Virus record (IMG/VR): IMGVR_UViG_2648501130_000004
Reading direction: 5' to 3' (one strand)
DNA from: a virus
Taxonomy: Duplodnaviria > Heunggongvirae > Uroviricota > Caudoviricetes
Length of the DNA: 19,480 nt
The notes below the pieces were generated by a model that was not told the DNA's origin, ran no database searches, and saw only the letters and a program-made list of their open reading frames with translations. Position 1 is the first letter of the stretch; each line of letters begins with the position of its first letter. Position numbers and translations under genes: made by a program. Of this stretch, positions 9,794 through 10,608 are shown in pieces.

Positions 9794-10608
9794 GTATGGA
9801 GCTGATGGTTAAAGCGATGAAAATTCGAGTGGGTAATCCATTGCGAAAACTGGTTCTGATCAAGCTGGCTGATAATGCCAGCGATCAGGGTGAGTGCTGG
9901 CCCAGCTACCAGCATATTGCTGACCAGTGTGAGATTAGCAAACGTTCTGTGATGAATCATATTGCGGCCCTTTGTGAGTCCGGGCTGGTAAAAAAAGTCA
10001 CCCGGAAAGGTGAAAAAGGTAACTCAAGTAATATCTATCTCCTTCATCTGGATGGTGCAGGAGATTCACTAGGGGGTAGTGCAAATAATTCACTATCTGG
10101 TGCAGCAAATTCACTAGGTAGTGCAGGAGTTGCACCAGGGGGTAGTGCAGGAGATTCACCCAGAACCAGTCACTCTTTTGAACCAGTCAAAGAACCAGTC
10201 AATGAACCAATAGCTGTTGGTGCATCAGTTGATGAGTCCGTGCGAGTTCGTTCAAACCGACCGGAATACTCTCCGGAGTTTGAGCAGGCATGGCTGGCAT
10301 ATCCCAAACGTGCTGGTGGCAATTCAAAATCTGCAGCCTTCAAAGCCTGGAAAGCCCGTTTGAATGAGGGGGTAAACCCCGAAACCATGCTGGAAGGTGT
10401 GAAACGCTACGCGGGCTGGGTATCTGCGATGGGTAACAGCGGCACACAATTTGTGAAACAGGCTGTCACGTTCTTTGGTCCGGATCGTCATTTCGAAGAA
10501 TCCTGGGAAGTTCCTGCGGTATCTGCAGCTAGACGTGAGGACCCGTACTTCAAAGCCAGTTACGACAACGTGGACTACAGCCAGATCCCGGCAGGATTCA
10601 GGGGGTGA
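9790..10608 (+). CDS. Replication initiation protein, lambda-O-like (N-terminal winged-helix/HTH domain, internal iteron-encoded linker)
   Basis: N-terminal LRKLVLIKLADNASDQGECWPSYQHIADQCEISKRSVMNHIAALCESGLV typical of phage replication initiators; the repeat-rich linker (GDSLGGSANNSLSGAANSLGSAG...) coincides with DNA iterons. Confidence 0.75.
   Translation: MSMELMVKAMKIRVGNPLRKLVLIKLADNASDQGECWPSYQHIADQCEISKRSVMNHIAALCESGLVKKVTRKGEKGNSSNIYLLHLDGAGDSLGGSANNSLSGAANSLGSAGVAPGGSAGDSPRTSHSFEPVKEPVNEPIAVGASVDESVRVRSNRPEYSPEFEQAWLAYPKRAGGNSKSAAFKAWKARLNEGVNPETMLEGVKRYAGWVSAMGNSGTQFVKQAVTFFGPDRHFEESWEVPAVSAARREDPYFKASYDNVDYSQIPAGFRG
10054..10210. repeat. Candidate origin of replication: about four iterons of the form TTCACTAGGgGTAGTGCA, each with internal dyad symmetry, followed by three GAACCAGTCA repeats
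   Basis: Direct repeats read from the sequence inside the O-like gene, the same arrangement as lambda ori inside O. Confidence 0.6.

Follow-up and report, generated by a model that had tools for sequence, protein, structure and literature searches.

Bacteriophages lambda and P22 keep their replication origin within the linker-coding middle of the initiator gene. The origin holds several dyad-symmetric iterons of about 19 bp that lie about two helical turns apart, the N-terminal domain of the initiator sets origin specificity and its C-terminal domain is matched to the helicase partner, and the gene belongs to an early rightward operon, downstream of cro/cII-like genes (PMC7466680). These traits are shared by a locus in a 19,480-nucleotide stretch of viral DNA (Caudoviricetes; IMG/VR record IMGVR_UViG_2648501130_000004), hereafter called the window, where an array of repeats and an adjoining block of GAACC words lie inside an initiator gene at 9790-10608 on the plus strand. 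The two systems differ in the family of the initiator, which is Phage_rep_O in lambda and P22 and HTH_36 in the window. They also differ beside the iterons, where lambda has an A+T-rich tract (PMC7466680) and P22 has an A-rich tract at the position of the GAACC element; the window has no tract of 80% A+T but a phased GAACC block of about 60% A+T instead. Finally, no P or helicase gene follows the window initiator. The layout is that of the lambda origin with a conserved, phased DNA word replacing the AT-rich tract, and sequence comparison makes it very probable that 10053-10209 is the replication origin of a lambdoid prophage of the SfV/mEp460 type, and that the initiator binds there to the iterons.

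Iteron plasmids (RK2 TrfA/oriV, F RepE, pPS10 RepA) also combine a winged-helix initiator with iterons. In these plasmids the sequence of the adjoining short direct repeats (13-mers) has to be preserved, Rep binds them in single-stranded form and also recruits host DnaB-DnaC, and the element encodes no loader (PMC4980987). The plasmid initiators are of another family, and the plasmid origin lies outside rep and has direct repeats and DnaA boxes, whereas that of the window lies inside the gene and has dyads and no DnaA box. The 13-mers and DnaA-trios of oriC share with the window a phased short word, conserved as DNA, right beside the last initiator box, and in oriC these words are needed for strand opening and helicase entry (PMC4980987). 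They differ from the window in that GAACC(N)GTC recurs there at 11-12 nt, in contrast to 3-nt trios or AT-rich 13-mers, and in that the window initiator has no AAA+ domain; an opening role for its words is a putative one. Among the Shiga toxin (Stx) phages, the 'Eru6' representative Stx2a_WGPS2 (AP012537.1) carries initiator DNA 98.5% identical to that of the window. Eru6 has been described with a Rha/Ash-type gene (Fagerlund et al. 2022, PMC8951638), and the window has an Ash-family gene upstream of the initiator but no stx gene in the part of the prophage that was seen. The Eru classification is based on gene content, reports no origin or iterons, and states that nothing is known on the proteins replicating Eru phages (PMC8951638).

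Dyad iterons within the initiator gene

Tandem Repeats Finder detected one array at 10055-10159 (consensus unit 21 nt, 4.7 copies, score 72) and another at 10180-10209 (period 12, 2.5 copies, score 53), and a second repeat search gave the same two repeat families. The 19-mer consensus TAGTGCAGGAGATTCACTA has four matches at three or fewer mismatches, all within 10053-10161, where 0.01 would be expected; none of 200 shuffles reached four, and no further copy was found at this threshold outside 10053-10161 across the window. A fifth copy, iteron 2, TAGTGCAAATAATTCACTA at 10077-10095, has four mismatches to the consensus, every one in the central spacer. The other units, each of 19 bp, are iteron 1, TGGTGCAGGAGATTCACTA (10053-10071), with the dyad GTGCA-N5-TTCAC, iteron 3, TGGTGCAGCAAATTCACTA (10098-10116), iteron 4, TAGTGCAGGAGTTGCACCA (10119-10137), and iteron 5, TAGTGCAGGAGATTCACCC (10143-10161). 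The unit core is GTGCA-N5-T(T/G)CAC, flanked by T(A/G) and (T/C)A, and the GTG-N9-CAC cores begin at 10055, 10079, 10100, 10121 and 10145, giving spacings of 24, 21, 21 and 24 bp. Iteron 5 abuts the GAACC element at a fixed spacing, and the junction CACCC/AGAACC is kept across the family.

A sequence-only reading had proposed an iteron array, and thereby a probable prophage origin, at this place in an O-like gene. The array is present there, far above chance, and its repeats are in frame in the initiator linker as that reading said, at codons 89-141 of the open reading frame (ORF) 9790-10608, between the HTH_36 and C-terminal domains. Its count of about four units becomes five, and the dyad that it gave as CACTA-ggg-TAGTG is the junction of adjacent units. 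Comparison with relatives places the conserved dyad inside each unit: the spacing of TAGTG-N9-CACTA is constant among them, and the G-run separating units is variable. The three GAACCAGTCA repeats said to follow the dyads, at 10163, 10180 and 10192, are the only exact matches in the window, and a partial fourth, GAACCA, lies at 10204. The rare Leu codon CTA recurs in three iteron units.

Relatives were gathered independently of the repeats, by tblastn of residues 1-89 against phage records (228 records) and by scanning one genome per bacterial species with an alignment of the N-terminal domain only (263 relatives, 80 kept). The homologues examined comprised 83 intact prophage genes selected by their N-terminal domain, 77 distinct viral-contig variants and several named phages; the prophage hosts include Pseudomonas, Shewanella, Aeromonas, Xenorhabdus and Marinomonas. 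Every intact homologue has 3-7 dyad repeats at the same position, in at least ten sequence classes. These include GTGCAGGAGCTGCAC in Pseudomonas, GGGCAGGAGCTGCCC in phi24B and TATGCCAnnnGATGGCAC in Klebsiella RothD and Aggregatibacter S1249, as well as TGTAGGCCCAGAAAGCAC, GTGTAAAAATTACAC, GTGACACAGAGTCAC, GTGAAAAATCTGCAC and others. The linker peptides encoded by the repeats vary by lineage (GSAGDS, PMPSDGT, GGAGAAP, PVGPEST), and therefore the protein sequence of the linker is not the conserved thing. Within Escherichia coli, the GTG, A, T and CAC positions are invariant in 75 units. Copy number shifts by whole units, with five as the usual number and seven in one relative (L020), and the match in phage cdtI exceeds the query by 66 bp. 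Diverged pairs agree better in their iterons than in the DNA coding for the N-terminal domain, and over the family the arms of the last iteron are complementary at 4.66 of 6 positions, compared with 2.48 in shuffles.

The iterons change together with the recognition helix of the initiator, which lies within roughly ISKRSVMNHIAAL (residues 49-61). The helix ISKRSVMNHI pairs with GTGCA..TTCAC, (V/I)(S/G)RSTVKxHIR with GGGCAG..CTGCCC, IDRSTVRKHIK with TGTAGGCC, and CSKSAVRNHID with TATGCC..GGCAC; a lone N-to-R change in the helix pairs with an iteron ending in GTCAC. Among 116 distinct genes, helix identity predicts the identity of the last iteron when the rest of the N-terminal domain is taken into account (partial Mantel r = 0.59), and no permutation of 2000 was as high. 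Conversely, the remainder of the domain contributed almost nothing when the helix was given (partial 0.12). In these comparisons the iterons behave as expected of putative initiator-binding sites. The sequence-only reading would have been refuted had homologous genes lacked repeats, and it withstands this comparison. The repeats in the homologues and the covariation with the helix support the view that the O-like initiator carries origin iterons in its linker, like that of lambda.

The initiator has 272 residues and matches PHROG 270, 'replication initiation protein', at 3e-88. Its N-terminal winged-helix DNA-binding domain (residues 1-89, 9790-10056, plus strand) matches Pfam HTH_36 over residues 17-67 (E = 1.8e-11), and the linker between the domains is flexible-looking, GAGDSLGGSANNSLSGAANSLGSAGVAPGGSAGDS. 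The term 'O-like' used in the sequence-only reading holds for the architecture and fails for the family: no match to PF04492 (Phage_rep_O) was found at E <= 0.01, whereas P22 gp18 matches it at 6.9e-38. An NCBIfam search gave nothing above the cut-off, and a sequence search of the Protein Data Bank with the whole initiator gave nothing meaningful, the best hit being a glucuronidase at E = 0.16. The whole protein matches PHROG families labelled 'replication initiation protein' or 'O-like'. Different PHROGs are matched by the N-terminal half (residues 1-140) and the C-terminal half (residues 135-272), which indicates a two-module protein. The HTH_36 initiator family comprises 7619 clusters at 50% identity (E <= 1e-3). 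Initiator DNA 98-100% identical to that of the window is found in phages Ayreon, mEp460, cdtI and SfV and in Stx2c/Stx2a phages; orf39 of SfV has 98.4% DNA identity to the gene.

The phased GAACC element

Conservation within the locus is highest not in the iterons but in the 35-48 bp that follow them. In the window this conserved origin core, AGAACCAGTCACTCTTTTGAACCAGTCAAAGAACCAGTCAATGAACCA, occupies 10162-10209 on the plus strand, with GAACC words starting at 10163, 10180, 10192 and 10204 (spacing 17, 12 and 12 nt), and is the proposed site of unwinding and helicase entry. The pattern AGAAYCAGTCACTCTnnTGAAYCAGTCAnnGAAYC stands at a fixed distance and in a fixed frame after the last iteron in 74 of the 83 intact prophage genes, and the remaining nine are in-frame length variants that still hold GAACC words. 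At least 120 viral contigs match the exact pattern, and all of the matches listed are inside such initiator genes.

Codon usage was compared in 61 non-redundant genes (less than 90% identical), whose mean DNA identity in the N-terminal domain is 65.5%. The element was found in them with a tolerant pattern, and the only genes lost were the nine length variants, none being lost by substitutions at fixed positions. At conserved amino acids of the N-terminal domain the top codon is used 51% of the time on average, and one invariant Arg uses its six codons about equally. In the element, a single codon serves for Arg (AGA, 57/57), Thr (ACC, 40/40), two Ser residues (AGT, 59/59; TCT, 60/60), His (CAC, 54/54) and Glu (GAA, 59/59), and Val is GTC in 58/59. 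Changes of one base at a few permissive positions still make amino-acid replacements common there (T/I, 40:21; F/L/S/P; P/S; H/N), and the reading frame turns the first GAACC copy into Arg-Thr and the later ones into Glu-Pro. The word also recurs in distant initiators. A Psychrobacter phage has GAACCTATCAAT three times in a distant HTH_36 initiator, 66 of 68 variants of the Pseudomonas phi2 clade have three to four GAACC words spaced by 11/12 nt, and the high-GC Arthrobacter phages repeat GAACCGTCCTT every 11 nt, which is not a multiple of three. The lack of synonymous variation, the tolerated replacements and the 11-nt period together indicate selection on the DNA. The peptide RTSHSFEPVxEP was ruled out as the reason for the conservation by the codon test and the 11-nt period.

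Among 20-bp stretches of the gene, mean duplex stability across the 61 genes is lowest at the element (nearest-neighbour dG about -24 compared with -27 kcal/mol), whose A+T content is 60-63%, compared with 48% gene-wide; in the window, 10162-10209 has 55-65%. The window combines an HTH_36 N-terminal domain, dyad iterons and GAACC(N)GTC words that are phased and begin 1-3 nt past the last iteron. This pattern of conservation points to the GAACC element as a functional part of the origin at the DNA level. Whether the block is an opening or loading site is evenly balanced in our judgement; the most economical reading would be a region of unwinding and helicase entry with specifically recognised words, akin to the 13-mers of oriC and of RK2 oriV, to which DnaA and Rep bind in single-stranded form (PMC4980987). 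The leading candidate for a reader of the words would be an invariant surface of the initiator, since the element accompanies the initiator group regardless of host phylum or helicase partner.

The same conservation could arise if the GAACCAGTCA element were kept as a recombination junction for the exchange of N- and C-terminal modules and had no role in initiation. Identity between pairs is highest at the element and often drops sharply right behind it (the window and the relative L014 are 97-100% identical upstream and 57-63% downstream), and the same N-terminal and iteron class occurs with several classes of C-terminal domain. A junction of this kind would not account for conservation at particular positions across Pseudomonas, Shewanella, Aggregatibacter and E. 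coli, at 65.5% identity in the DNA of the N-terminal domain, nor for the phased GAACC words with different flanks in the Arthrobacter phages and the phi2 clade, which are too diverged to recombine with the window element. A role in recombination alone is therefore unlikely, and the two roles are not mutually exclusive.

A wider proposal for the origin core, which we put forward tentatively, is that the GAACC(N)GTC words may be a previously unrecognised, sequence-specific origin core of a very large group of HTH_36 phage initiators. It would have been kept from phages of Actinobacteria to those of Gammaproteobacteria, independently of iteron specificity and helicase loading, and would be read by the initiator or the replicative helicase. 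As a counterpart of DnaA-trios and 13-mers it would replace the AT-rich tract and also serve as the universal splice point of modules. The iteron array alone is ordinary; what appears to be new is the family-wide GAACC element fixed at the nucleotide level. In the literature that was searched, which took in initiator-solo modules and the SfV, Stx and 24B phages, this origin, its iterons and the GAACC word are undescribed, and an earlier mention of the iterons is possible. Weigel and Seitz (2006, FEMS Microbiol Rev, 'Bacteriophage replication modules') may have classified such loader-less modules.

A related word occurs in P22. In the P22 origin (1341-1485 of the record L308), the annotated fourth iteron, CCGAATCAGTCAAAC, contains GAATCAGTCAAA, an exact variant of the 12-mer word. 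P22 gp18 is in a different Pfam family, and the match may be due to chance or may be a trace of common ancestry.

Helicase recruitment and the working of the putative origin

The C-terminal domain (residues 143-272, 10216-10605, plus strand) is helical, matches PHROG 26426/3729/1701 and is proposed to recruit the helicase or its loader. The match to PHROG 1701, 'DnaD-like helicase loader', covers the C-terminal part only. No Pfam family was found for this domain in 25 aligned sequences (the window and 24 homologues); its AlphaFold model has a pLDDT of 71.6, and fold matches to DnaD domains are weak. At least eight C-terminal classes follow the element in the family, each with its own following gene. 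The partners downstream are a lambda-type P (PF06992), a DnaC-like IstB ATPase (PF01695), which is followed by DnaB in Aeromonas phage AsXd-1, DnaB itself, a Toprim-gp4 primase-helicase (phi24B), lineage-specific genes, or no replication gene. A single N-terminal and iteron class occurs with several C-terminal classes, and the similarity break at the element fits this.

The sequence-only reading stated that no P or DnaC-like gene follows the initiator, and this is correct within the window. A scan of 20 window ORFs gave no Phage_lambda_P, IstB/DnaC or DnaB domain, and the RefSeq annotation of the whole region has none. That reading left two possibilities, dependence on host factors or an incomplete module. 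The downstream gene, PerC/YfdN-like at 10605-11099, is translationally coupled to the initiator, and the same initiator with the same PerC-like gene occurs in the plaque-forming phages SfV and mEp460 and in a circular, complete phage genome of 44.6 kb that was deposited as a plasmid. Among the parts examined, which were a region of SfV, the mEp460 early region and the gene table of the circular genome, none has a gene annotated as helicase, primase or loader. Because working phages share the loader-less module, the replication module is complete, and the branch that invoked host factors is the one supported. The C-terminal domain of the window initiator is 47-72% identical to those of relatives in which a DnaC-like gene comes next, some of which have nearly the same N-terminal domain and iterons as the window. 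With such kin, the solo initiator probably works with a host DnaC-type loader. The absence of a P, DnaC or DnaB of its own and the pairing of the closest C-terminal domains with a phage DnaC-like gene make host DnaB-DnaC the most likely partner, and we regard its actual use as having about an equal chance of being right or wrong.

It has to be considered that the PerC/YfdN-like gene itself fills the P/DnaC slot and delivers the helicase, in which case the module would not be loader-less. In the loci examined, YfdN-like and DnaC-like genes are mutually exclusive after the initiator. In addition, the last 23 residues of the initiator (10537-10605), ending in EDPYFKASYDNVDYSQIPAGFRG, travel with the PerC/YfdN-like gene. 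The tail EDPYFK(A/S)SYDNVDYSQIPAGFRG is common to the initiator of phage vB_EcoM-689R6 (2299-2367 of L211), whose N-terminal domain, iterons and C-terminal domain are otherwise different (lambda-O-like) and which also has a YfdN/PerC-like gene next. The tail (DNVDYSQIPAGFRG) thus covaries with YfdN even on an unrelated C-terminal domain, and relatives with a DnaC-like gene next carry other C-terminal tails. This link may reflect a mosaic boundary, or YfdN may belong to the module. YfdN, however, has a PerC transcription-activator domain and a MarR-like N-terminal half, a mosaic boundary inside the 3' end of the initiator gene can explain the covariation, and Vibrio phage D290, which has a related C-terminal domain (45% over 83 residues), has neither a YfdN-like nor a DnaC-like gene at the locus. 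Helicase delivery by YfdN is improbable in light of these points.

If 10053-10209 is an origin, dimers of the N-terminal winged-helix domain would bind the five dyad iterons, as the covariation suggests, and build an O-some-like complex. Iterons about two helical turns apart would all lie on one face of the DNA. The duplex might then open next to them, in the 48-bp block of phased GAACC(A)GTCA words, which would stand in place of the lambda AT-rich tract. The element would be read most likely by an invariant surface of the initiator, possibly as single-stranded DNA, like the 13-mers read by plasmid Rep. The exchangeable C-terminal domain would recruit the replicative helicase, and host DnaB-DnaC could be taken up directly, like in iteron plasmids. 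Upon cleavage of the repressor, the origin in the 20-kb remnant could still fire in situ.

Several points weigh against this account. The searched literature has no experiment on any member of the HTH_36 phage initiator group. At about 60% A+T the element is no classical unwinding element, and its conservation may partly reflect module exchange, given that similarity between mosaic relatives breaks there. The covariation statistics retain some phylogenetic non-independence. The coupled PerC/YfdN-like gene, which excludes and is excluded by the DnaC-like gene, could be part of the module.

Other modes of initiation find little in the sequence around the array. No DnaA box consensus was found within 9 kb of the origin and no GATC between 9887 and 10482 (about 600 bp around it), and therefore an origin controlled by DnaA or SeqA is not supported. 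A promoter scan found no promoter-like site in 9500-10800, and so there is no sign of an origin-internal promoter; no Rfam RNA family was found in the origin. A hairpin-type (ssi-like) signal was ruled out, the single-strand fold of 10040-10230 having z = -0.99.

The iterons of plasmids also mediate handcuffing and autorepression (PMC4980987). The window iterons could likewise be initiator sites for autoregulation, copy control or incompatibility, with the true origin elsewhere. This is very unlikely, because the window has no other iteron copy, for example by a promoter, the promoter scan of 9500-10800 was empty, and the array is always joined at fixed spacing to a conserved element of low stability, which is the layout of an origin and not of an operator. 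The view that the repeats are a low-complexity Gly/Ser/Ala/Pro linker produced by replication slippage, with no function in cis, draws on the flexible-looking peptide GAGDSLGGSANNSLSGAANSLGSAGVAPGGSAGDS and on unit numbers that vary between isolates, but is scarcely credible when the dyad layout, spacing and position are conserved between lineages and the peptide is not, the repeats covary with the recognition helix, the rare CTA codon is reused in three units, and GTG, A, T and CAC do not vary.

Host prophage and spread of the module

The window is 100% identical to E. coli SWYH.B349aT, where it belongs to an element of about 20 kb between yjjG and prfC. The gene order is integrase, an AIPR/Abi-like gene, yfdP/yfdQ/yfdR homologues, an S24-peptidase repressor, cro, ymfL (cII-like), an ash-family gene, a 78-residue ORF, the initiator, the PerC/YfdN-like gene, a LexA-like gene, rusA, KilA-N, DUF968 and Q, after which only remnants of a truncated tail fibre and an invertase follow. 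No lysis, head or tail genes were found in the element beyond the truncated tail-fibre remnants, and the prophage is therefore defective. Integrase through Q are intact. Two opposed tail-fibre assembly genes lie at 15966-16499 (plus strand) and 16528-17055 (minus strand), and a recombinase fragment of 72 residues lies at 18102-18320; this part looks like a decayed invertible tail-fibre segment.

The initiator DNA is matched in 2718 of 5426 complete E. coli genomes. This initiator type thus reaches about half of them, and it occurs in Shiga-toxin phages (Eru6, Eru5-like), cdt phages and serotype-converting phages. The comparison yields a map of the putative origin, with binding sites, the helix residues that would set specificity, and a 48-bp core that could be recoded with no change of the protein. 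The GAACC word could help to find origins in phage and prophage genomes with related initiators, and the element offers an explanation for the shuffling of the specificity half and the helicase-partner half of the initiator. In a remnant prophage whose origin and initiator are intact and whose repressor is SOS-cleavable, DNA damage could lead to local amplification of the yjjG-prfC neighbourhood.

Directly upstream of the initiator is the 78-residue ORF (9557-9793, plus strand; PHROG 1153; SfV orf38), which overlaps the initiator start codon by 4 nt (ATGA) and is found with the initiator in SfV, in mEp460 and in the circular phage of 44.6 kb. Further upstream, two Rfam families score above the gathering threshold, isrK at 9088-9164 (plus strand, 58.9 bits) and C4 antisense RNA at 9189-9276 (plus strand, 80.7 bits). 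Both are placed upstream of the ash-family gene or within its 5' part, which suggests a putative antisense immunity element of P1/P7 type just upstream of the replication genes.

Beside the integrase, the 597-residue gene at 1388-3181 (plus strand) matches an Abi-alpha-like abortive-infection family (PHROG 1841; AIPR family in RefSeq), and is probably defence cargo of the remnant prophage. The homologues of yfdR (4587-5186, minus strand) and yfdQ (5252-6076, minus strand) have counterparts in the cryptic prophage CPS-53. According to one report, YfdR binds DnaA and interferes with its contacts to DnaB and DiaA (PMC4776307). One could speculate that YfdR diverts DnaB from oriC in a phage whose initiator relies on the host helicase.

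The initiator family is matched in 33 plasmid records, mostly circular and phage-sized, 30 of which are typed as non-mobilizable. Examples are NZ_CP148393.1 (L307), CP077666.1 and ten records of Arsenophonus nasoniae of about 28-104 kb (most about 40 kb). The one record examined, NZ_CP148393.1, is a complete lambdoid phage genome, and the others may be excised replicating phages or phage-plasmids.

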